Part shown: positions 1,571-63,823 of the stretch, in pieces
How the letters are laid out: each line of letters starts with the position of its first letter
Position numbering within the stretch: the stretch's first letter is position 1
From: an uncultured Chitinophagales bacterium
GTDB lineage: Bacteria; Bacteroidota; Bacteroidia; Chitinophagales; JADIYW01
Length of the DNA: 64,000 nucleotides
Assembly (NCBI GenBank): GCA_964472755.1
Contig: CAYYMF010000004.1
Location: 3,120 to 67,119 of the forward strand
Reading direction: 5' to 3'
Made by a program: the position numbers and the translations under genes
Notes under the pieces: model-generated
The model's input: only the letters and a program-made list of their open reading frames with translations
The model's database searches: none
What the model was told of the DNA's origin: nothing

Positions 1571-3673
1571 TTGAATATTAAAACTAACATATTATTAAGA
1601 ATTTATATAGTAGGCATTTTGTGTGCTGTGTTTGGTTTTGTCGTAATGGGAAGAGTTTATCAAATTCAAACAGAAAGAGACGGTTATTGGCGAAATATTG
1701 CGGATTCTTTAACAACAAAAATTTTTACAATTCCAGCAGATAGAGGAAATATTTATTCTGCAGAAAATGAATTGTTAGCAACAACTGTACCTTATTTTAA
1801 TTTATTTATAGATTTTGGTTCAACAGCAATGAGTGATGAAATTTTCAAAGCAAATATTGATTCTTTAGCCTATTATATGTCTGTAACTAAGAAAGATAAA
1901 CCTATACAGCAATATAAAAAGGAATTAACTACGGCAAGAAAACTAAAAAGAAGATACTATCCAATTTTTAAAAATATTGAATTTGTACAATTAAATAAAA
2001 TAAAGCAGTGGCCACTTTTTAGAGAAGGAAAATATTCAGGTGGTTTAATTGTAGAGACATTACAAAAAAGACATAACCCTTTTGGATATATTGCTGGAAG
2101 AACGATTGGATATATTAAAAATGATGGACCAAGTGTTGGTTTAGAAGGAACTTATAATTCTTATTTGGCGGGTGTTAGTGGAATAATGCCTAAGCAGCGA
2201 ATTGCTGGTGGCACTTGGATGCCTATTCATAAAGCTGGAAGCATAGAACCTCAAAAAGGAAAAGATATACATACCACTATTGATATTTCAGTTCAAGATA
2301 TTGCAGAGACAACATTAATGGATGCAGTTATTAACTACAACGCTGATTTTGGTTGTGCAGTAGTCATGGAAGTAAAAACGGGTGCAATTAAAGCAATTGC
2401 TAATCTTGGTAAAAATAAAAATGGAACTTACAGTGAAACTTATAATTATGCAGTGGGAATGGGCAATGAACCAGGCTCGGTTTTTAAATTAGCAGGATAT
2501 TTAGCATTATTTGATGATGGTTATATCACTTTAAATGATTCTATTAATACAAACCACGCATCAGCTACTTTTGGAAAATTCCGTTTGACAGATGATGGAC
2601 ATAATACGCAATATCAATTTCTGAATCCAAACAAAGCTATGGCTATTTCCTCAAATGTGGCTATAGCTAAATGGGTAACACAATTTTATGAAGGAAATAA
2701 GAAAAAATATTATGCTAAGTTGGCACAATTTGGTCTAACTGCTAAAACTAAAATTGAATTATCAGGCGAGCCTGCACCTTACATAAATACACCAGATAAG
2801 TGGTCTGGAATGTCACTGCCTTGGATGGCACATGGTTATGAAGTAAAACTTACACCTTTACAAATTTTAGCTTTCTATAATGCCGTTGCTAATGGTGGAA
2901 TTAGAACACAACCACATTTAGTGAATTATATTTCTGAAGGTACCAATATTATTAAGACTTTTGATTATACAGATGGACAAAGAATTTGTTCTAAAGAAGC
3001 TGCTTTAAATGCAACAGAAATTCTAAAATCAGTTGTAAATGATAAAAGTGGGACAGGAAGAAATATTAGCACACCTTATTATCAAATAGCTGGAAAAACA
3101 GGAACTGCAAAAATCAGTTTTGGGAAAGAAGGCTATTCTAATAAAAATCTATCCACTTTTGTAGGCTTTTTTCCTGCCGATAATCCATTGTATTCTTGTA
3201 TTGTTGTGATGGGAAATCCTCAAGGTTTGGTAACAACTGGCGGTTATGTTGCAGCACCAGTTTTTAGAACGATTGCAGATAAAATTATTTCTTCTAATGT
3301 GAAAAATAATTTGGCAATAAATAAAGATACATCGTTAAAAAGCATTAATCCTCCAACATTTATTGCCAATACTCAACAAATAAAATCAATAGCAAAATTA
3401 TATGATGTAAAGGTAGATGCCAACCATTTAGATGCAGAATATGCTTATGTAGATATTGATCCAGTTGATAAAAAAGTTAAAGTTAGAACGATTAAAAATG
3501 ACCCGACTATCATACCAAATGTGAGAGGTATGTTGTTAGATGATGCTATCTATTTATTAGAAAATATGGGCTTTAAGGTCGGCTTTACAGGCAAAGGAAA
3601 AGTTCAGTCGCAATCTATAGAGTCTGGACAAATTTTTATGAAAGGAACTTATATCCATTTAACACTAAACTAA
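1571..3673 (+). CDS. ftsI: Class B penicillin-binding protein with C-terminal PASTA domain (FtsI/PBP3)
   Basis: N-terminal TM, RGNIY dimerisation motif, SxxK (SVFK), SSN, KTG motifs, PASTA (IPNVRGM); TTG start. Confidence 0.92.
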   Translation: MNIKTNILLRIYIVGILCAVFGFVVMGRVYQIQTERDGYWRNIADSLTTKIFTIPADRGNIYSAENELLATTVPYFNLFIDFGSTAMSDEIFKANIDSLAYYMSVTKKDKPIQQYKKELTTARKLKRRYYPIFKNIEFVQLNKIKQWPLFREGKYSGGLIVETLQKRHNPFGYIAGRTIGYIKNDGPSVGLEGTYNSYLAGVSGIMPKQRIAGGTWMPIHKAGSIEPQKGKDIHTTIDISVQDIAETTLMDAVINYNADFGCAVVMEVKTGAIKAIANLGKNKNGTYSETYNYAVGMGNEPGSVFKLAGYLALFDDGYITLNDSINTNHASATFGKFRLTDDGHNTQYQFLNPNKAMAISSNVAIAKWVTQFYEGNKKKYYAKLAQFGLTAKTKIELSGEPAPYINTPDKWSGMSLPWMAHGYEVKLTPLQILAFYNAVANGGIRTQPHLVNYISEGTNIIKTFDYTDGQRICSKEAALNATEILKSVVNDKSGTGRNISTPYYQIAGKTGTAKISFGKEGYSNKNLSTFVGFFPADNPLYSCIVVMGNPQGLVTTGGYVAAPVFRTIADKIISSNVKNNLAINKDTSLKSINPPTFIANTQQIKSIAKLYDVKVDANHLDAEYAYVDIDPVDKKVKVRTIKNDPTIIPNVRGMLLDDAIYLLENMGFKVGFTGKGKVQSQSIESGQIFMKGTYIHLTLN

Positions 3674-3678
3674 AAGAA

Positions 3679-5136
3679 TTGAATAAATTAAATGAAATAT
3701 TATTTGGATTGAACTACAATATTGTAGGGAATGATACTATTGAAATTAATGAATTAAAAATTGATTCTAAAAGTATTCAACCAAATGATGTTTTTATTGC
3801 GATTAAAGGAACAAGTGTTGATGGTCATACTTTTATAGATACGGTTATTCAAAAAGGTGCAAAAGTTATTGTTTGTGAACAATTACCAAATAATATCAAC
3901 GATTCCATAACTTATATTCAAGTAGAGGATACAAGAAAAATAGCTGCTTTATTAGCATGTAATTTTTATCATCATCCATCTAAAAAGACAAAACTTGTAG
4001 GTGTAACTGGCACCAATGGCAAGACTACAATTGCTACTTTATTATATCAATTATATAGAAAAGCTGGTTTTAACGTTGGTTTGATTTCTACTATAGAAAA
4101 TAAAATCAATGAAGAAATTATTTCTGCAACACATACGACACCAAACCCAATCGCTTTGAATCAATTGTTGGATATGATGGTACAACAAAATTGTGATTAC
4201 GTCTTCATGGAAGTAAGTTCACATGCAGCTCATCAAGATAGAATTGCAGGTTTAAATTTTGCAGGAGCAATTTTTTCAAATATTTCTCACGACCATTTAG
4301 ATTATCATAAAACATTTGACGAATATATTAAGGCAAAGAAAATATTCTTTGATCAATTGCCATCATCAGCTTTTGCTCTAGTGAATATTGATGATAAACG
4401 TGGTGAGGTAATGTTGCAAAATACATTAGCCAAAAGATATACTTATGCTTTAAAATCTTTAGCTGATTTTAATTTTAAAATCTTAGAAAATAATTTATCA
4501 GGTTTAGTTTTGAAATATAAACATCAAGATATTTATACGCATCAAGTTGGCAATTTTAATGCATATAACTTGTTAGCCATTTTAGCCACAGCTATTTTAT
4601 TAGGAATGGACGAACAAAAAGCACTTGGTCGTATTTCTGAATTGCAAAGTGCTGAAGGCAGATTTGATATTGTAAAATCAAATCGAAATAATATTGTCGG
4701 AATTGTAGATTATGCACACACGCCTGATGCTTTGAAAAATGTTATAGACACAATAAATACGGTAAGAACTGGCAACGAATCTTTGATTACAATAATTGGT
4801 TGTGGAGGAAATAGAGATAAAGCGAAACGTCCAGAAATGGCTTTGATTGCTGCAACGCTTAGTACCAAAGTTATTCTGACATCTGACAATCCTAGAGATG
4901 AAGAACCTGAGCAAATTATTGCTGAAATGCAAGCGGGTATTCCTCCTCACTTAACTAAAAAAGTAGTTACTATTTTGGATAGAAAAGAAGCCATTAAAAC
5001 TGGTGTTTTATTGGCTCAAGCGAATGATGTCATCTTATTAGCTGGTAAAGGACATGAGAAATATCAAGAGGTAAAAGGTATAAAACATCCATTTGACGAT
5101 AAGCAAATATTAAGTGGAATTTTAAATAATATATAA
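3679..5136 (+). CDS. murE: UDP-MurNAc-tripeptide synthetase MurE
   Basis: GVTGTNGKTT, MEVSSH, DHLDYH, DYAHTPDA, DNPR motifs; TTG start. Confidence 0.97.
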   Translation: MNKLNEILFGLNYNIVGNDTIEINELKIDSKSIQPNDVFIAIKGTSVDGHTFIDTVIQKGAKVIVCEQLPNNINDSITYIQVEDTRKIAALLACNFYHHPSKKTKLVGVTGTNGKTTIATLLYQLYRKAGFNVGLISTIENKINEEIISATHTTPNPIALNQLLDMMVQQNCDYVFMEVSSHAAHQDRIAGLNFAGAIFSNISHDHLDYHKTFDEYIKAKKIFFDQLPSSAFALVNIDDKRGEVMLQNTLAKRYTYALKSLADFNFKILENNLSGLVLKYKHQDIYTHQVGNFNAYNLLAILATAILLGMDEQKALGRISELQSAEGRFDIVKSNRNNIVGIVDYAHTPDALKNVIDTINTVRTGNESLITIIGCGGNRDKAKRPEMALIAATLSTKVILTSDNPRDEEPEQIIAEMQAGIPPHLTKKVVTILDRKEAIKTGVLLAQANDVILLAGKGHEKYQEVKGIKHPFDDKQILSGILNNI

Positions 5137-17871: not shown

Positions 17872-20301
17872 TTAAAATTTATAACTAATTGAAAGAGATG
17901 CGTTGATAGGTTCAGTTTGATTGATATAACCACCTCTGAAATACGAATTTAATCCTATTTTATTGGTTAGGTTATTCATATATAATCTTGCAGAAAATGC
18001 TTTGTAAGTATAACCAATTTGTGCATTCAAAGTTGTGTAAGCTGGCATATCAAAAGGTTTTTCTCCACCCATATTTCCGTGTCCATCAGGCGTTAAACTG
18101 TATTCATTTACTGGTCTTTTGCCTACATAATAAACACCTGCACTTAAACTCAAGCCTCTTAATGCTCCTTGACTAAATTGGTATTGTATCCAACCATTTG
18201 CAGTATGTGTAGGTGCATTCATTGGAGCAGAACCATTCACATAAGAAGGTGAATTTTTATAGCGTGCTTTTAAAAATGCATAACCTACCATAACAGTTAA
18301 ATCTTTAGTGATACGCCCATTTAATTCTGTTTCTATTCCATCTCTTAATAAATCACCAGCTTTGAAATAATATCCAGTGGTTACATTTGTTCCTTCAAGA
18401 TATTCTGAATTTGATAAATTTGCTGTATAGATATGAAAATAAGTTAAGTTGTAACGAAGTCTATCTTTAAACCAAGCAGTTTTTATTCCAGCTTCAAATT
18501 GTTGGGTTCTAGATGACCCAATTTCTTGTCCGTTACTCATTAAATTAGAAGCAGATCGTAAGCTTGTAGAGTTGGTATAAGAACCAAAAATATTTATACT
18601 TTCTGTTGGAGAGAGCATTAAACCAACACTTGGATTCCAAGCTGATTGTCTTTTTCCTTTTGTTCCTAATGGGTCTTTAGTGTAGATTTCTGAATAACGA
18701 ACGCCAATGAACAATTTTAAGTATTTATGTAATTCAATAATATCTTGTGCTAAGATACCGAAAGTATGGTAAGCAGAAACAACAGGTGTTTTAGGATTGA
18801 ATACAATATTTACACCTAGTTTCTCATTGCCCATATCATCATACTTAACTACTTTGCTTAAATCATTCGTAAAGTCTCCATAAATATCAATAGTATCAAT
18901 AGTTACTGCATCAAAAGATGTTGTAGTTGCATTGGCAGATCTATAATCGAAACCAGTTTGGATAGTATGTTTAAATGGACCAGTTTTTATATTTTGAGCA
19001 ATAAAATCAAATTGTAATGTTGAGTTTTTATCATCTCTCAAACTTTTAGTAACATCACGTTTTCTTAAATTAAAATCTTTATTTTTAAATGCTGCATTTG
19101 AAGTGGTCGAAATATTATCTACTTGATAAGACGAGAAACCATATGCTGCACGAATCATTAATTTATCATTGATGTTGTGGTCAAATCTTGCCATAAAGCT
19201 TGACATCTTGGTATTGTTATTATCAGTATTAAATCCTAAAAACTTATCTTTAGGTATAATGTAAAGTGCATTTTCTCCTTGTCCAGGTGCTAAGTTGATG
19301 GCATCATTTTTTGGTGTACGGTTGTCATTAAAATAATCGCCTTCAATTATAAAACTTGTTTTTTCTGATACTTTCCATGCAAAAGATGGATTGAAATAAA
19401 AACGATGTGCACTCGTTCCTTCTCTAAAAGTTTTGCCATATTCATATACACCATTGAAACGAATACCTATGTTTTTCTTTTGTGTTAATACTCTTTGAAT
19501 ATCAAATGAAGGACGAACTTGATGCCAGCTTCCATAACGAAGACTCACATTGCCTAAGTTTGTAAAGTTGGGTGTTTTGGTAACCACATTGATTACTCCA
19601 CCCGCATTTCCAATGTCTGTTATCACACCTTGAGTAATTGCTGCAGAACCTTTTATCATCTGAATAGATTCTACACCTTGCATATCCACAACACCTGATG
19701 CTGTCTGAAATTGTGAATCCATACGGATACCATTTTTCAAAACAGGAACACCTCTAAAACCTCTTGTGGACATAGATTCTTTTACACCGCCATAACTCCC
19801 GAATAAAGTTACGCCCGGAATATTACGAACTGCATCTGTAATAGTCAATGCACCTTGTGCTTCTATTACTTTATAAGAAATTACCGAAACGGTTTGAATA
19901 TTGTCATTTGGATTAATCGGCAAACGTGTAATCATTTCCAAACCTTTAGGTTTGTCATTACGCTCTCCAAAAATTTCTACATTATCTAAATTTAAAATTG
20001 TATCACTTGCTAATGTAACAGTTAAATCTTGTTCTTCTTCGTTCACATTAACAGTTGTGGTATAAGGTTGGTAGCCTGGACTTAAAACTTCTAATTGATA
20101 AGAACCATAAGGAATATTTGATAATAACGCAATGCCATCTTGATTAGCAACTGTGTCTCTGTCTGCATCAATTAAACTAGCTTGGAACAAGGCAATACCA
20201 TTTTTGTCCCCATCTATACTTTTGATTTTTAAGTCTGCTGTCTGTGCATGCACGAATCCATTTAGAGATAGTGCCACGAATAATAATTTTAAGCGATTCA
20301 T
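17872..20301 (-). CDS. TonB-dependent (siderophore-type) receptor
   Basis: Signal peptide, N-terminal carboxypeptidase-like domain, plug (RNIPGV, RGF, IKGS..GG.IN), beta-barrel, terminal YKF. Confidence 0.93.
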   Translation of the reverse strand: MNRLKLLFVALSLNGFVHAQTADLKIKSIDGDKNGIALFQASLIDADRDTVANQDGIALLSNIPYGSYQLEVLSPGYQPYTTTVNVNEEEQDLTVTLASDTILNLDNVEIFGERNDKPKGLEMITRLPINPNDNIQTVSVISYKVIEAQGALTITDAVRNIPGVTLFGSYGGVKESMSTRGFRGVPVLKNGIRMDSQFQTASGVVDMQGVESIQMIKGSAAITQGVITDIGNAGGVINVVTKTPNFTNLGNVSLRYGSWHQVRPSFDIQRVLTQKKNIGIRFNGVYEYGKTFREGTSAHRFYFNPSFAWKVSEKTSFIIEGDYFNDNRTPKNDAINLAPGQGENALYIIPKDKFLGFNTDNNNTKMSSFMARFDHNINDKLMIRAAYGFSSYQVDNISTTSNAAFKNKDFNLRKRDVTKSLRDDKNSTLQFDFIAQNIKTGPFKHTIQTGFDYRSANATTTSFDAVTIDTIDIYGDFTNDLSKVVKYDDMGNEKLGVNIVFNPKTPVVSAYHTFGILAQDIIELHKYLKLFIGVRYSEIYTKDPLGTKGKRQSAWNPSVGLMLSPTESINIFGSYTNSTSLRSASNLMSNGQEIGSSRTQQFEAGIKTAWFKDRLRYNLTYFHIYTANLSNSEYLEGTNVTTGYYFKAGDLLRDGIETELNGRITKDLTVMVGYAFLKARYKNSPSYVNGSAPMNAPTHTANGWIQYQFSQGALRGLSLSAGVYYVGKRPVNEYSLTPDGHGNMGGEKPFDMPAYTTLNAQIGYTYKAFSARLYMNNLTNKIGLNSYFRGGYINQTEPINASLSISYKF

Positions 20302-20409: not shown

Positions 20410-20519
20410 ATGTGAAAAAAACTTAATAAAATTGGAGTTTTTAATCCTCTTTTTAGATTGTATTTATGATTTTACTTTAAGAGCGACATTATCCTGAAAA
20501 ATTTATTTAATAGAATTAA

Positions 20520-20687
20520 ACCCAAAATATGCAATAGATATTCTATTACAATTGAAAACACCTGCAAAATATAACGCTACGCTAACTTTTGCTCATTCAC
20601 CATAGAGGTTACTATGTTTCAATCGCAAAAGTTTATATTTTATTGGTGTTTTCACTTTCATAACGAATCCTATTGCATAATTCGGGT
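20520..20687. mobile_element. 168-bp MITE-like element, copy A (IS982-like ends)
   Basis: Imperfect TIRs ACCCAAAATATGCAATAG / ACCCGAATTATGCAATAG; TTAA on both flanks; ~95% identical to reverse complement of 39554-39721; no intact ORF. Confidence 0.85.
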
Positions 20688-20736
20688 TTAATTCAGTATT
20701 TTTGGCTTTTATTTTTAAAATCAGATATAATTTAGA

Positions 20737-21813
20737 ATGAAAACTACAGCACTTACGGATACACATATTGCTCTTGGAGCCAAAATGGTGGATTTTGCAG
20801 GATTTAATATGCCAGTTCGTTATACTTCAGATATTGAAGAACATAATATTGTTAGAAATGGGGTAGGTGTTTTTGATGTATCACACATGGGCGAATTTAT
20901 TGTGAAAGGAGTTGAAGCATTACCATTCTTGCAAAAAATTATATCTAATGATATTTCAACTTTAGAAATTGGGAAAGCAATGTACGGTTATTTACCGAAT
21001 GAAACAGGTGGAATTGTCGATGATTTATTGGTGTATAAAATGGCCGATGAAGAATATATGTGTGTGGTAAATGCTGGAAATATTGATAAAGATTGGGCTT
21101 GGTTTACACAACATAATACCAGTAATGCGCAATTAAAAAATATTTCAGATAATATTGCTTTATTGGCAATCCAAGGGCCAAAAGCAGCAGAAGCATTGCA
21201 ATCATTAACAGAAGTAGATTTAAAAAGCTTGCCTTATTATCATTTTACTGTAGGAAAATTGGCGGGTATTGAGAATGTCATTATTTCAGCAACTGGATAT
21301 ACTGGAGCTGGTGGTTTTGAAATATATTTTGACAAATCTAATGCAGAAACTATCTGGAATCAAATTTTTGAAGCAGGAAAACCTCAAAATATACAACCAA
21401 TTGGTTTGGGTGCTAGAGATACCTTACGTTTAGAAAAAGGTTTTTGTTTGTATGGCAATGATATTGATGATACTACTTCTCCATTAGAAGCTGGATTGGG
21501 TTGGGTAACCAAATTCAATAAAGATTTTATAGCAAAGGATATTTTATTGAAACAAAAAGAAAATGGACTTAGTAAAAAGTTAGTGGGTTTCAAAATGATT
21601 GATAGAGGTATTCCTCGTAGTCAGTATTTGATTAAAGATGCCGATAATAATGAAATTGGTCATGTAACATCAGGAACTCAGTCTCCAACCTTAGGTTATG
21701 GAATTGGCTTAGGTTATGTGAATATTGAGCATTCAAAAGTAGGTACAGAAATTTTTATTGAAGTAAGAAATAAATTAATAAAAGCTGTAGTTTCAAAAAT
21801 TCCTTTCCTTTAA
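20737..21813 (+). CDS. gcvT: Glycine cleavage system aminomethyltransferase GcvT
   Basis: [41 protein letters not shown]. Confidence 0.97.
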
Positions 21814-38527: not shown

Positions 38528-39553
38528 ATGCAAAATCCAAATTTAGATGCAAGTGGCGATTATTTGTCTAAAACTGAAAAGGAATTAGAAAAAGTATTAC
38601 GTCCTCAAGCAATTGAACAATTTGCTGGACAACCTCAAATTATTGAAAATCTGAATGTTTTTATTCAGGCTGCAAAATTGCGTGATGAAGCATTAGATCA
38701 TGTTTTATTACATGGACCTCCAGGTTTAGGAAAAACGACTTTATCTCATATTATTGCGAATGAATTAGGCGTAGAAGTAAAAATGACTTCTGGACCAGTG
38801 TTAGAAAAACCTGGCGATTTGGCTGGTTTACTTACTAATTTACAACCTAACGATGTTTTATTTATTGACGAAATTCATCGTTTGAATACTACTGTTGAAG
38901 AATATTTATATTCCGCTATGGAAGATTATAAAATAGATATTATGATTGATAGCGGACCCAATGCTAGAAGTATTCAAATCAGTTTGAATCCTTTTACATT
39001 AATTGGTGCTACAACACGTTCAGGTTTATTGACAGCTCCTTTACGTTCTCGATTTGGTATTACTTTTAGATTAGAATATTATTCTAAAGAAGTTTTGCAA
39101 AAAATTATCCAACGTTCTTCCAATATTTTGAATACTGAAATTGATGAAAAAGGCTCTATGGAAATCGCAAAACGTAGCCGTGGTACGCCTCGTATTGCAA
39201 ATGCTTTGTTGAGAAGAGTACGAGATTTTGCACAAATCAAAAGTGATGGGAAGATAGATTTAAAAATTTCTCAATATGCTTTGAAAGCACTGAATGTTGA
39301 TGAACATGGCTTAGATGAAATGGATAATAATATTTTAGCTGCTATTATAGAAAAATTTGGTGGAGGTCCTGTTGGAATTACAACTATCGCAACTGCGGTT
39401 GGTGAAGAATCTGGCACGATTGAAGAGGTTTATGAACCTTTTTTAATTCAAGAAGGTTATCTGAAAAGAACGCCTAGAGGTCGAGAGGCAACAGCAAAAG
39501 CTTATACACATATTGGTAAAGTTCCACCGTCCCAAACTGGTAGTTTATTTTAG
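38528..39553 (+). CDS. ruvB: Holliday junction helicase RuvB
   Basis: [38 protein letters not shown]. Confidence 0.98.
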
Positions 39554-39721
39554 ACCCGAATTACGCAATAGGATTCGTTTTGAAAGTGAAAATACCAATA
39601 AAATATAAACTTTTGCGATTGAAACATAGCAACCTCTATGGTGAATGAGCAAAAGTTAGCGTAGCGTTATATTTTGCAGGCGTTTTCGATTGTAATAGAA
39701 TATCTATTGAATAATTTGGGT
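39554..39721. mobile_element. 168-bp MITE-like element, copy B (inverted relative to copy A)
   Basis: Starts ACCCGAATTACGCAATAGG immediately after ruvB TAG, ends ...TAATTTGGGT; about 8 substitutions vs copy A, no indels. Confidence 0.85.
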
Positions 39722-39734
39722 TAAATCTAAAAAT

Positions 39735-40301
39735 TTATTTTTTGATTATTTTATTCGCATTAGCTTTGGCAAATGCTTCCCAACCAGAATATTTAGTTGA
39801 GGTATTTTGCAAGCCTAAAAGAGAAAAATGATGACACATAGCAACTGCCAAACCATCAGTGGCATCTAATTGTTTGGGCAAGGCATTCGTTTTTAAAATC
39901 TGACAAAGCATTGCAGCAACTTGCTCTTTTGCTGCATTCCCATTTCCAGTAATGCTTTGTTTTACTTTCTTTGGGGAATATTCCTGAATGGGTATTTTTT
40001 TTGATAAAGCAGCCGCAATTGCCATTCCTTGTGCCCGACCTAATTTCAACATTGATTGAACGTTTTTGCCAAAAAATGGTGCTTCAATTGCTAATACATC
40101 AGGTTTATACATATTGATGATTTCTAAAACCTCATCATAAATTTTACACAATCTATCGTAATGGTCGTCATATTTTTCTGTATAGATAGTTCCAATTAAG
40201 ATTAATTCCGCATTTCTGGTATCTGAATTGATAATACCGTAACCAGTGGTATGACTACCTGGGTCAATACCTAAAATTGTAATTTGCTTTTTCTCTGCCA
40301 C
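39735..40301 (-). CDS. ruvC: Crossover junction endodeoxyribonuclease RuvC (start revised to GTG 40301)
   Basis: ILGIDPG, AIEAPF, KLGRAQG, DATDGLAVA; the TTG at 40307 lies inside a TAATTTTG promoter element. Confidence 0.95.
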   Translation of the reverse strand: MAEKKQITILGIDPGSHTTGYGIINSDTRNAELILIGTIYTEKYDDHYDRLCKIYDEVLEIINMYKPDVLAIEAPFFGKNVQSMLKLGRAQGMAIAAALSKKIPIQEYSPKKVKQSITGNGNAAKEQVAAMLCQILKTNALPKQLDATDGLAVAMCHHFSLLGLQNTSTKYSGWEAFAKANANKIIKK

Positions 40302-40356
40302 GCCCAAAATTAATTGTTTTAGCTTATAAAATAAAAAATTACTTATTTTTATCCAA

Positions 40357-51169: not shown

Positions 51170-52939
51170 TTGAATATTGATTATAAAAAGATTGGTTTAA
51201 GCTTATTAGTAATAGTTGTGATTATTGCTTTTTATGCTATATCATTTATAAAAAAAGATAAGCAATCAGATGCTGTTATCAATTTTGATTTGACGAAAAT
51301 TAAAGAAAGAGGCATCTTGCGTGTCATTACAGAGTATAATTCCATCAGTTATTTTATTTATAAAGATGAAGTTGCTGGTTTTGATTATGAAATAATGGAA
51401 CGATTTGCAGAAAGTATTGGTGTGCGAACAGAATATATTATTGCTCATAATCATCAAGAAATGTATAATTTTTTGAGACAAGGTAAGGGTGACATCATTG
51501 TAACTGGTTTATATAAAACCAATGCCTCAGGTGTGGCTTATTCTATACCTTATAGAAAATCAGAGCAAGTTTTAGTTCAACGTAAAGCAGGAAAATATAT
51601 TCGAAAATCAGATAGTACAACGCTATATTTTCAGCATATAAATGATATAAGATCATTGGAAGCGAAAGATGTTTTTTTAACACTAAATTCGCCTTATATA
51701 GAACAGCTAAAACACTTAGCAGATACACTTGGGTTTAATGTAAATATCAATTTGGTGAGTGATGAAAGAAGTATTGAGGATTTAATAAATGCAGTTTCCG
51801 ATGCGGAAATTGACTTTACAGTCGCCGATAAAGATTTAGCCTTAACCAATAACTCATTTCTAGGAAACTTAGATTTAGGTATTCAGTTCGGAAAAGAAAA
51901 AGAATTACATTATGCAACTCGAAAATCATCAAAAGAATTACAAATTATTTTAAATGAATGGCTAAGCCATTTTATTAAATCAAGTGATTACAAACAAATT
52001 GCCAATAAATATTTTAAGTTTGATAGAAAGATTATTGATCAATTTAATGAAACAGAATACTTAACCAAAGGACAAATTTCTGTATATGATAATATTATTC
52101 AATATTTTGCCAAAGGCATCAATTGGGATTGGCGTTTAGTAGCAGCTTTGATGTATCAAGAATCTAAATTTGATCCAAACGCCACTTCGTGGGCAGGTGC
52201 AAAAGGATTAATGCAATTGATGCCAGGAACAGCAAGGCAAATGGGTTTGCATACAGGTTTGTATCAGCCAGAACAAAATGTACAAGCAGGAACAAAATAC
52301 CTAAAATATTTAGAACAATTTTGGAAAGAAGTTCCAGATTTTACACAACGAATAAAATTTATTTTAGCATCTTATAATGCAGGTGTTGGACACGTTCAAG
52401 ATGCTGCAAGGTTGGCAAAAAAATACGGCTATTCCGATACAGAATGGGATGGAAACGTGGAGTATTTTATTTTGTATAAATCTAACCCAAAATTTTATAA
52501 TGATAGAGTCGTAAAATATGGTTATGCAAGAGGTAGTGAAACCTTCAATTATGTCCGAAATATCATTAAAAAATATTTTTATTATACAGATAATATCAAT
52601 GATTCAACCAATTTAGATTTTGCATTACAACAAAAAGATTTAATTCCGTTTAATGGAATCGATGGTGTGTACAATCCAAGTGTTGGGCTGTTACAAGAAC
52701 GTGTTAGAAAAGAGTTGTTTGTTTCTAAAAAACTCTTTGAACAAAATCAAGATTTAGTTCCATTAAACAATAAAAATAATCCTTTTGATAAAGAGCCCAA
52801 TGAACTATTCAAAGAAAAGAATAAAAGCAAAAAACTCTTTGAACAAAAGAATAATCTATTTCGTAAAAATGATACAGCAAACCATCAACAATTGATGATT
52901 AAGAACGAAAATAATATTAACCAGTTAAAGCCTCGTTAG
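51170..52939 (+). CDS. mltF: MltF-like lytic transglycosylase (substrate-binding domain + SLT domain) with C-terminal extension
   Basis: IKERGILRV, GFDYE, WDWRLVAALMYQESKF (catalytic Glu), GLMQLMP, ASYNAGVGHV. Confidence 0.88.
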   Translation: MNIDYKKIGLSLLVIVVIIAFYAISFIKKDKQSDAVINFDLTKIKERGILRVITEYNSISYFIYKDEVAGFDYEIMERFAESIGVRTEYIIAHNHQEMYNFLRQGKGDIIVTGLYKTNASGVAYSIPYRKSEQVLVQRKAGKYIRKSDSTTLYFQHINDIRSLEAKDVFLTLNSPYIEQLKHLADTLGFNVNINLVSDERSIEDLINAVSDAEIDFTVADKDLALTNNSFLGNLDLGIQFGKEKELHYATRKSSKELQIILNEWLSHFIKSSDYKQIANKYFKFDRKIIDQFNETEYLTKGQISVYDNIIQYFAKGINWDWRLVAALMYQESKFDPNATSWAGAKGLMQLMPGTARQMGLHTGLYQPEQNVQAGTKYLKYLEQFWKEVPDFTQRIKFILASYNAGVGHVQDAARLAKKYGYSDTEWDGNVEYFILYKSNPKFYNDRVVKYGYARGSETFNYVRNIIKKYFYYTDNINDSTNLDFALQQKDLIPFNGIDGVYNPSVGLLQERVRKELFVSKKLFEQNQDLVPLNNKNNPFDKEPNELFKEKNKSKKLFEQKNNLFRKNDTANHQQLMIKNENNINQLKPR

Positions 52940-52940
52940 C

Positions 52941-54099
52941 TTAGTTGGTTTTTAAAACAATAATTCCGTGTGCTGGTATTGTAAACAACTTTTTCGCTCC
53001 AATCTTGCCTAAATCTTGATGCAACCATAAATCTCTAACCGTAACGTCTTATTCAATTCCGATTTTATTAGTATATAATGTATAATCAACAGATTTGTTG
53101 CTTTTATTAAAAATAGCAATCGCAAATTGGTCGCTATTTTTGCCTAAAGGTTTTACCCAAACATCAACTTTTTTACCTTTTATAATTCTTTTTACTTGCT
53201 TAAATCCTTCATCTTGATTAAGTGCAATTAATTCTTTATTAGCTAATATCTCAAGTGTTTGTTTGGACATATTTCTTAAATCATTCCCAGTCATTAATGG
53301 AGAGTTCATCATGTACCACATCGAAAAATGAGATTTATCTTCATCGTAAGTCATGCCATTGCCTACTTCCAACATATCCATATCGTTATAATGTCCAGGC
53401 GATGCATAAGGATAAAGATTGGCACTCTTTCCTATAATGTATAATATTCTTGAAAATTTAGGAAAGATATCATAAGATATACGCCAAGAATCTGCTTTGT
53501 CAATAGCCCATTTGCCTGGAAATGCCCAACGACAGATAATATAATTGATTGACTTGTCAATCTTTTTTATAGCATTATATATATTTAGGTATTCAGTTTC
53601 CTCATCTAAACGCATCGCTTCTGCACCGCACCAATCTACTTTCAAAAAGTCAAAATTCCATTGATTGAAAAATAAATCTACGTCTTCAGGAATATGTCCA
53701 TAAATACCAACACCAAACCCTTTTTTGTCTTTATCTTTACTGTAATATCCACAAGTGTTTTTTCCAGCATCAGTATAAATTCCAGCTTTTAATTCTTTTT
53801 GATGAATGTAATCTACCAAATTTCGCATACCTTAAGGAAGTTTAGTGGTGTCAATTAATAAATTTCCTTGTGCATCACGACCGCCAAAATAACCATCATC
53901 GATATTGATAAAACAATAACCATCATCATATAAACCAGATTTTATCATAGCGTCTGCTTGTCTTCTGATGACTTCCTCATTGACATTAAGTTTAAAATGA
54001 TTCCAACTGCTCCAACCCATAATTGGTGGTTGCTTATCTTGTGCATTTACTGAAAAGATTAAAAAAAAATAGTAATGTTGGAATAAGTAATAATTCCAT
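52941..54099 (-). pseudogene. GH27 alpha-galactosidase pseudogene (1 frameshift + 2 in-frame TAA)
   Basis: Signal peptide from ATG 54099 out of frame by one base at T9 tract (54061-54069); PPIMGWSSWN; TAA at 53832-53834 (KLP*GMR); KVDWCG; WRISYDI; TAA at 53049-53051 (GIE*DVTVRDLW...PAHG) ending at TAA 52941. Confidence 0.9.
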
Positions 54100-63022: not shown

Positions 63023-63041
63023 ATTGAATATTTAATAATAG

Positions 63042-63080
63042 AAAGAGGCTGTCAAAAAATTTTAGGACAGCCTCTTTTTT
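63042..63080. terminator. Bidirectional intrinsic terminator
   Basis: AAAGAGGCTGTC...GACAGCCTCTTT + T-run. Confidence 0.88.
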
Positions 63081-63823
63081 TATTGAAATTTCCTTTTATG
63101 TAATTGAGGAACTAAAATGCCGACTGCTGAACCAATGGCATAACCTACTAAAATATCTGTAAAAAAGTGTTTGCCCGCACCATATCTACATAATCCTGTA
63201 ATCGCTGGGATTAGTGCAGCACTTGTCCACATAAGTGGTTTGAATTTAGAATCTGGATGTAAATCAGCAAATACTTTTGCCATAAAAAATGTACTTGCTG
63301 CTGTCGTACTTGTATGTCCTGAAAAGAATGACGCAGTAGCATCTTTTCCAACTTTACTTTCTGCACTTAATTTATCATTATAAACATAAGGTCGCTTACG
63401 TTTCACAATTTCTTTGGTCATCAAGGTTAAACCCGAAGTTAAACCATAAACTTCTATCCACATTGGCAAATAGTATTTCCATTCTTTTCTTACTGCTTTA
63501 TCAATAAACATTAATGCAGGAGCCAAACTTGCACCATATAATAAAATATCTGATGAAATTTTTGCACCTTTATTATCGTGAAAGATGGCACTTCTATCAA
63601 ATTTATTGACCATAGAAGGAGAAAGTGCATTAATCTCATCAGCGGTAATTACCTTTTTATTCTTGTGCAAAAAATATGCAGCAGCACCTGTTCCAACTGT
63701 TATCCCAATTATTGGAGCATCAACGCCCCATTTATATTTATATTTTGATGTATAAGTATTATTTTGTGCAATAATATTTAAACCAAATAGAAGTAGGAAT
63801 AGAAAAGAAATTATTTTATTCAT
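63080..63823 (-). CDS. PAP2 family phosphatase
   Basis: KEIVKRKRP, SFFSGHT, RYGAGKHFFTD motifs. Confidence 0.9.
   Translation of the reverse strand: MNKIISFLFLLLFGLNIIAQNNTYTSKYKYKWGVDAPIIGITVGTGAAAYFLHKNKKVITADEINALSPSMVNKFDRSAIFHDNKGAKISSDILLYGASLAPALMFIDKAVRKEWKYYLPMWIEVYGLTSGLTLMTKEIVKRKRPYVYNDKLSAESKVGKDATASFFSGHTSTTAASTFFMAKVFADLHPDSKFKPLMWTSAALIPAITGLCRYGAGKHFFTDILVGYAIGSAVGILVPQLHKRKFQ

Follow-up and report, generated by a model that had tools for sequence, protein, structure and literature searches.

A family of non-coding palindromic elements with IS982-type ends dispersed in Bacteroidota

Introduction

ERIC/IRU and YPAL of enterobacteria and Correia/NEMIS of Neisseria are palindromic, transcribed MITEs that duplicate TA and for which RNA effects have been demonstrated. 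Insertion sequences of the IS982 family are described in the literature as having ends that begin with AC, terminal repeats 11-35 bp long and direct repeats that range from 2 to 10 bp but mostly measure 6-9 bp; the ends of ISPlu11, for example, read ACCCGAATTCTGC… (PMC7335449 Fig. S1). Within Bacteroidota, an IS982-family MITE, MITECca01/02, has been reported from Cardinium and is derived from ISCca4 (PMC9769881).

Here we analyze a pair of short repeats in a 64-kb stretch of DNA from an uncultured Chitinophagales bacterium (hereinafter, the window, that is, the whole stretch analyzed). The names of homologues likewise assign the host to Chitinophagales. The initial annotation of the window, made from its letters, had proposed that the two repeats represent a non-autonomous element with IS982-like ends. 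Dispersed multi-copy relatives, target duplications, an empty allele at one of the two sites and the lack of an encoded protein all agree with that proposal, and we conclude that the two copies very probably belong to a family of non-coding MITEs with IS982-type ends that is moved in trans and is widespread in Bacteroidota.

Results

Two inverted copies of a 168-bp element

The two copies, denoted A and B, are inverted relative to each other and share a length of 168 bp, differing by 8 mismatches without any indel (95.2% identity), which confirms the initial description of this repeat (about 8 substitutions, no indels). In a repeat search across the window, they were recovered as a 177-nt inverted pair of 94%; all remaining inverted pairs were at most 41 nt long and at most 81% complementary, the next best being 41 nt at 73%. 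Four sites in the window match a degenerate pattern of the element ends, and these are the ends of copies A and B alone (0.35 sites expected; none of 100 shuffles reached four), and a search of the 64-kb window with the family profile (nhmmer) detected no further or degraded copies. Two copies are thus documented in the host, a count that covers the 64-kb window.

Each copy is bounded by 18-nt terminal inverted repeats (End1 and End2; Table 1) that are alike at 15-16 of the 18 positions within a copy, match the imperfect inverted repeats quoted in the initial annotation, and are conserved over 18 diverse family members. Copy A is located between a divergent gene for a TonB-dependent receptor (minus strand, start at 20301) and gcvT (plus strand, start at 20737), and its apical hairpin is the window version of a near-invariant family centre, ACCATAGCGGTGCTATG. 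Copy B lies between the convergent genes ruvB (plus strand, stop at 39551-39553) and ruvC (minus strand, stop at 39735-39737). The sole ORF that overlaps copy A encodes 57 aa (20593-20766) and enters from the flank. The fragment MVNEQKLA followed by a stop, which had been read as a possible dead transposase start, does exist in the sequence, but nothing was found in support of such a role. Elsewhere in the window (63030-63089), there is an unrelated, perfectly abutting 30-nt inverted repeat (…AAAGAGGCTGTC…GACAGCCTCTTT…) that resembles a bidirectional terminator.

Table 1. Coordinates of the two element copies and their parts in the window
Feature	Position	Strand	Basis
Copy A of the MITE, End1 to End2 on plus strand	20520..20687	+	nhmmer, 129.8 bits; site empty in relative L131
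Copy A, End1 terminal inverted repeat, ACCCAAAATATGCAATAG	20520..20537	+	sequence; end-pattern search
Copy A, End2 terminal inverted repeat, ACCCGAATTATGCAATAG (read on minus strand)	20670..20687	-	first 9 nt as in prototype IS982 end
Copy A, left target duplication (TAA)	20517..20519	.	sequence; flank survey; empty site
Copy A, right target duplication (TTA; 1 mismatch to the left one)	20688..20690	.	ATA here in the empty allele of relative L131
Copy A, apical hairpin of the rod, CATAG-AGGTTA-CTATG	20601..20616	+	folding; family alignment
Copy B of the MITE, End1 to End2 on minus strand	39554..39721	-	nhmmer, 127.2 bits
Copy B, End2 terminal inverted repeat, ACCCGAATTACGCAATAG	39554..39571	+	end-pattern search
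Copy B, End1 terminal inverted repeat, ACCCAAATTATTCAATAG	39704..39721	-	end-pattern search
Copy B, flank TAG (stop codon of ruvB; also one half of the target duplication)	39551..39553	.	sequence; flank survey
Copy B, flank TAA (other copy of the target duplication; 1 mismatch to TAG)	39722..39724	.	sequence; flank survey

A family of short elements in several orders of Bacteroidota

A scan of one genome per GTDB species with a pattern that covers all four observed ends yielded at least 99 matching stretches, nearly all of them from Bacteroidota. Among the matches listed, 60 of the 64 paired ends are 155-169 bp apart (59 of these at 164-169 bp), and none is about 1 kb apart. The short elements of 164-169 bp align with the window copy over their entire length. 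Two copies in the Chitinophagales MAG HK-STAS-BACT-18 (L064 and L111) are 94% identical to the window copy, and identities of 70-74% were observed for the copies from Roseivirga, Roseivirgaceae, Cytophagales, Labilibacter and Echinicola, and for the two abundant subfamilies in the Cyclobacteriaceae MAG D96SM.bin.1, in which one subfamily sequence is present 16 times in identical form. Dozens of copies were found in the MAG JAKISE01, at least two in JACJXS01, and at least 10 other genomes carry copies. Carriers include Echinicola shivajiensis AK12, Rhodonellum psychrophilum DSM 17998, Cyclobacterium qasimii, Labilibacter sediminis and Maribacter spongiicola. The high copy number per genome that the initial annotation had suggested holds for genomes other than the host's, one Cyclobacteriaceae MAG containing dozens of copies. 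The family is spread over several orders of Bacteroidota and is far more widespread than the single window could reveal.

The Microscilla plasmid pSD15 carries one copy, and a phage-like IMG/VR contig (IMGVR_UViG_3300006077_000719; L119 442-535) contains a 94-bp version that has these ends too and is flanked by a perfect duplication of TAA; the plasmid and the phage-like contig are possible vehicles for horizontal spread between hosts. In the search of viral contigs, the paired-end pattern, the internal 18-mer and the exact consensus end each produced no match, and the 12 matches of the internal 18-mer to JGI metagenome contigs were all chance matches of 18-20 nt. There were no matches in Rfam 15 at the gathering thresholds, the best sub-threshold hit being MIR7993, a generic long hairpin (35.9 bits, with the threshold at 100). 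The end and centre strings are absent from the searchable literature, and keyword searches of it returned no prior description of the family; the 164-169-bp family seems to be undescribed before, although the kind of element is ordinary.

Several variants were encountered. A 'micro' element of about 41 bp (L057 1312-1352) is nothing more than the two terminal repeats joined back to back (ACCCAAAATAAGCAATAGAAATTCTATTGCTTATTTTGGG). In Echinicola and Cyclobacterium, variants ~190 bp long (L028 7414-7604; L096 12-201 and 206-394) have an additional small hairpin rich in G+C (CCCGACAGTGGTCGGG / CCCGATTAATTCGGG) within the End2 arm, and the two copies of this type in L096 are arranged head to tail with 4 bp between them. 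In addition, some Cyclobacteriaceae copies (L049 4470-4733 and L061 ~3502-3934; also L025, L048 and L113) are split by a different MITE of about 260 bp that has canonical IS982 ends (ACCTGAGTTCGACCTAAGGAATGCTGTCAG) and 5-bp duplications (TATTA, TAATA), so that two IS982-type MITE families are nested in one genome.

The MITE also breaks short-read assemblies. Five of the six fetched contigs with identical RuvB (L001-L006) end exactly 57 nt into copy B, the sixth (L003) ending at the ruvB stop; the contig of relative L132 covers only the last 23 nt of copy A; and in JAKISE01, many contigs break off ~100 bp inside a copy. Such breaks require only two copies and hence are no evidence of a higher copy number.

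Target duplications and the empty allele of site A

Examination of the flanks of 67 complete copies reveals a perfect 3-bp T-N-A duplication in 53 (TTA in 26, TAA in 22, TCA in 3 and TGA in 2). Three of the complete copies, including copy A, have TTAA on both sides, and another signature, a 2-bp TA duplication, was also observed in three. In both window copies, the paired flanking triplets differ by one base. Only one of the 54 classifiable copies is located inside an ORF.

Another line of evidence on the mobility of the element comes from relatives. In L131 (GcvT 94% identical, same 809-aa receptor gene), site A is empty and reads …AATAGAAT-ATA-ATTCAG…, whereas the filled site of the window reads …AATAGAAT-TAA-(168 bp)-TTA-ATTCAG…; in L132 (GcvT 98% identical), whose contig starts inside the element, site A is filled. 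The filled site is longer than the L131 allele by 168 + 3 bp, which implies a 3-bp duplication (TAA on one side and TTA on the other, with one mismatch) and argues against duplication of the 4-bp TTAA: the 4-bp model predicts an empty site shorter by one nucleotide, which misfits the L131 allele. The TTAA flanks of copy A pointed out in the initial annotation are indeed present on both sides, but a 4-bp duplication is not supported, the family duplicating 3-bp T-N-A; the palindromic empty site that had been reconstructed, GAATTAATTC, is not supported either, the actual empty allele of L131 being GAATATAATTC. The search across other genomes that had been suggested along with that reconstruction turned up dispersed copies, target duplications and an empty site A.

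As for copy B, the element most likely was inserted exactly at the TAA stop of ruvB, which subsequently mutated to TAG. In relatives whose RuvB is 87-94% identical, ruvB is followed after 2-13 bp by another gene and is not adjacent to ruvC, so that copy B sits at a break of gene order; the convergent ruvB-ruvC arrangement (window 38528-40307) is specific to the window's genome when compared with L127-L130. An inversion between copies A and B, considered as a cause of the mismatched flanks, is not supported because it would perfect one pair of triplets but worsen the other.

IS982-type termini and the search for a parent transposase

The prototype IS982 of pSK11L, read directly, starts ACCCGAATTGCTAG… / ACCCGAATT / ACCCGAATTGCTAGTT…, which verifies the start that the initial annotation had quoted; its first 9 nt are identical to those of the window End2, ACCCGAATTATGCAATAG. 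The starts of the element are ACCCG and ACCCA, and ACC[CT]G is the start of every IS982-family element that we inspected, namely, ISRa1 (ACCCGTTGTGCATT…), the Bacteroides and Empedobacter elements (B. fragilis / Empedobacter type, ACCCGTAGTGCATTATAGAAA…), the IS1187-like elements (ACC[CT]GTTGGCGGAATTAA…) and more than 40 others. The B. fragilis type has ACCCG, T9 and ATAGAAA at positions 15-21 in common with End1. Compared with the published repeat consensus, AC(N)6T(N)5TT, the element has the AC and the T9, whereas positions 15-16 are AT rather than TT. The 3-bp duplication falls inside the published range of 2-10 bp, but the fixed T-N-A is atypical of the family. Apart from this target and the one deviating position of the repeat consensus, the element agrees with the published family description. 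In the ISRa1-like elements, the transposase stop codon is located within or beside the right repeat, and TA flanks both sides.

A full IS982 transposase between the same terminal repeats, which the initial annotation had proposed to look for, was found neither in the loci nor in the ~50 IS982-family elements inspected. A tblastn search for IS982 transposases gave no match in the window or any fetched locus (~0.9 Mb of flanks), and no DDE_Tnp_1 or DDE_Tnp_1_3 transposase was detected between the same ends in the fetched loci or the inspected IS982-family elements. More generally, no autonomous element with these ends was present in the ~0.9 Mb of flanks, pSD15, the plasmid collection, viral contigs or the ~50 real IS982-family elements. 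The transposases of pSD15 belong to IS256, IS200/605, IS1182 and IS21, with none from IS982, and probing at the DNA level with the nested canonical IS982-type repeat gave only noise.

Several candidates were discarded. The ORFs adjoining unpaired ends encode a histidine kinase, LipB, patatin, an MFS transporter, DinB, FdhD and TrmD rather than transposases. Inverted pairs with ACC… ends separated by 700-1600 bp are chance pairs only, as exemplified by window 52485-53590, which extends across two unrelated genes. ISRa1-like transposases and the ~50 real IS982 ends were considered as a parent, and none has the ends of the MITE.

The eight codons preceding End2 read LITN[PS]IA plus stop, with variation mostly in third positions, and resemble the C-termini of ISRa1-like transposases (…SII and …NLA, each before the stop); on the other strand, an ATG lies ~85 nt from End2, a spacing that is usual for the start of a transposase. 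When each half of the element was aligned to the left and right ends of real insertion sequences, the similarity was not significant (z < 2). Because no full-length insertion sequence with these ends was identified, the link to IS982 is a matter of terminal sequence and layout.

A side observation concerns the Empedobacter stercoris plasmid pLPY03 (NZ_CP104212.1; L135, 8422-9900), on which the extended-spectrum beta-lactamase gene blaRAA-1 is preceded, in the same orientation, by an IS982-family element that terminates 134 bp upstream of it. IS982-family elements located upstream in the same orientation have been reported to drive resistance genes.

A rod fold conserved in pairing and asymmetric between strands

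Each window copy folds as a nearly full-length rod, and the rod predicted in the initial annotation is real, with z = -7.9 for the plus strand and z = -9.6 for the minus strand of copy A. Covariation was assessed in an alignment of 18 sequences from at least 10 genomes, as had been suggested as well. Standard pairs are formed in 94.3% of the cells, compared with 83.2% in shuffles; 16 pairs are changed on both sides, compared with 9.9 in shuffles, a number attained in none of 500 shuffles; sliding the partners lowers the covariation score from 0.307 to 0.04-0.075. The compensatory changes are found in the internal arms and the apical hairpin, whereas the helix of the terminal repeats shows zero double changes and varies by mismatch alone. 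Thus, the terminal repeats are constrained in sequence and the internal arms and the apical hairpin in structure, the arms being conserved in pairing rather than in sequence.

The two strands of the element are not equivalent. The family profile scores ~128 bits in one orientation versus 19 bits in the other. The End2-to-End1 strand folds more stably in all 43 unique copies, by 14.5 kcal/mol on average, although the strands of shuffled sequences differ by ~7 kcal/mol too, so that base composition accounts for roughly half of the asymmetry in folding energy. For the same consensus pairs, the End2-to-End1 strand contains 43 G·U versus 13 A·C cells, or 35 versus 11 when counted as events by position and subfamily (p = 5e-4). 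In tandem gene contexts, 19 of the 24 copies place the End2-to-End1 strand in the sense transcript of the neighbors (p = 0.007), with the caveat that the ORF calls behind this count are crude and most of the copies come from one MAG. Scans for sigma-70 promoters and intrinsic terminators remained at the chance level (the tool lacks Bacteroidota promoters). The compensatory changes, together with the G·U excess and the orientation bias, suggest that the rod is selected on one strand, probably as RNA.

Discussion

The observations presented here define a mobile, non-coding, multi-copy element that duplicates 3-bp T-N-A and for which an empty allele exists. It combines short length and lack of coding capacity with terminal inverted repeats, a duplication of constant length, dispersed copies and an empty site, all hallmarks of MITEs; a further hallmark, an autonomous partner with the same ends, was not detected in the loci, pSD15, the plasmid collection, viral contigs and ~50 IS982-family elements. 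From the ends, we infer mobilization in trans by an IS982-family DDE transposase. The element is composed of two 18-nt IS982-type terminal inverted repeats (ACCCGAAATATGCAATAG-like), two mutually pairing internal arms and a small apical hairpin, with no gene. A DDE transposase supplied in trans, most likely from the Bacteroidota branch of the IS982 family, would bind both ends, excise or copy the element and insert the latter into an A/T-rich target of the form T-N-A. When the staggered cut is repaired, 3 bp, and occasionally 2 or 4, are duplicated. The preservation of the ends in sequence is what would be expected for transposase binding. Upon read-through from neighboring genes, the rod most plausibly would form a stable RNA hairpin.

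The argument for mobility leaves little room for the interpretation that the pair arose long ago by local duplication of an immobile sequence, either a non-coding palindrome or an ncRNA gene, confined to these two sites. The two documented copies in the host window and the imperfect flanking triplets at both of them are compatible with such an origin, but dozens of copies reside at unrelated sites elsewhere, with perfect duplications, copies are found on a plasmid and a phage-like contig, and site A is empty in L131, so we regard this origin as highly improbable. A different question is which enzyme moves the MITE. The IS1031 group within the IS5 family typically duplicates 3-bp T-N-A, as do PIF/Harbinger elements, and a transposase from outside the IS982 family, for example, an IS5-family enzyme of a T-N-A-duplicating group, would account for the target preference and for the failure to find an IS982-type parent among the searched loci and inspected elements. 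The ends of IS5-family elements, however, are generally described as starting with GA or GG, which the ends of the MITE misfit, whereas ACCCG… is the start seen in every IS982-family element inspected; moreover, the TA flanks of the ISRa1-like IS982 elements represent the same T/A-rich context, and three MITE copies have a 2-bp TA duplication. An enzyme from outside the IS982 family thus appears unlikely.

The remaining alternative adds to the identification of the copies as a MITE rather than replacing it: the element might be mainly a structured RNA module that is mobile by chance, the rod being transcribed in the End2-to-End1 direction through read-through or from its own promoter and acting in cis or in trans. 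Such a module might stabilize 3' ends, be targeted by RNase III/E, form a barrier resembling a terminator or regulate the parent transposase in antisense, and selection for the rod RNA would explain the upkeep of the family. This possibility derives from the compensatory changes in the arms and apical hairpin, with the ends varying by mismatch only, and from the strand asymmetries, that is, the greater stability of the End2-to-End1 strand in every unique copy, the excess of G·U events, the orientation relative to the neighbors and the profile polarity. Several of these admit another explanation, at least in part: base composition contributes to the energy difference, C-to-T changes favored by transcription on the non-template strand could raise the G·U count to the same extent in the absence of selection, template switching from arm to arm could maintain the palindrome without selection, and the orientation count depends on crude ORF calls and on copies that come mostly from one MAG. 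Furthermore, no Rfam family matches, and no terminator-like or promoter-like signals rise above chance. We consider a primarily RNA-based identity of the element possible but not the favored interpretation. The more specific suggestion that the rod is a functional RNA carried on a mobile element, the End2-to-End1 hairpin of which would alter the stability or termination of the neighbors' transcripts or silence the parent transposase, is offered tentatively and with considerable doubt. If it holds, this phylum-wide MITE family would serve as a dispersed post-transcriptional module of Bacteroidota, a phylum in which elements of this sort have received little study.

The identification of the copies as members of a mobile MITE family has several ramifications. 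Copies are found at gene boundaries, one abutting the ruvB stop and another located 49 bp upstream of gcvT, and mark differences in gene order between close relatives. Because the family is shared by numerous genomes of Bacteroidota as well as by a plasmid and a phage-like contig, it can be used as a marker of horizontal exchange. The family also points to a putative IS982-type transposase that duplicates T-N-A. Should the strand-specific hairpin act as RNA, the copies would provide a natural set of insertions for studies of 3'UTR and 5'UTR control in Bacteroidota, and the interest of the family would grow if the hairpin proves to be RNA-active or if a T-N-A-duplicating transposase turns up.

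Among the known systems, ERIC/IRU, YPAL and Correia/NEMIS have no sequence relation to the present MITE, belong to another host phylum and have a different or unknown parent family; their RNA effects have been demonstrated, whereas any such effect of the present MITE is hypothetical. The architecture is nevertheless similar, with a length of 100-170 bp, a rod formed by the whole element, intergenic location, a short A/T duplication and an orientation-dependent potential at the RNA level. MITECca01/02 shares with the present family its non-autonomous character, IS982-type ends, Bacteroidota host and multiple copies, but is ~240 bp long, was reported as unique to one strain and has ISCca4-type ends (ACGTGAGTTCGA…) along with a parent in the same genome (PMC9769881); the family described here consists of elements of 164-169 bp, extends over several orders, and no parent was found. 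In comparison with the IS982 family itself, the MITE lacks a transposase gene, has a length of 168 bp as opposed to ~1 kb, duplicates a fixed 3-bp T-N-A where the family mostly duplicates 6-9 bp, matches no inspected member beyond position 9 of the repeat and, beyond the repeats, shows no significant similarity to real IS ends. What it has in common with that family are the ACC[CT]G termini, the 18-nt terminal repeat with T at position 9 and the T/A-rich target.
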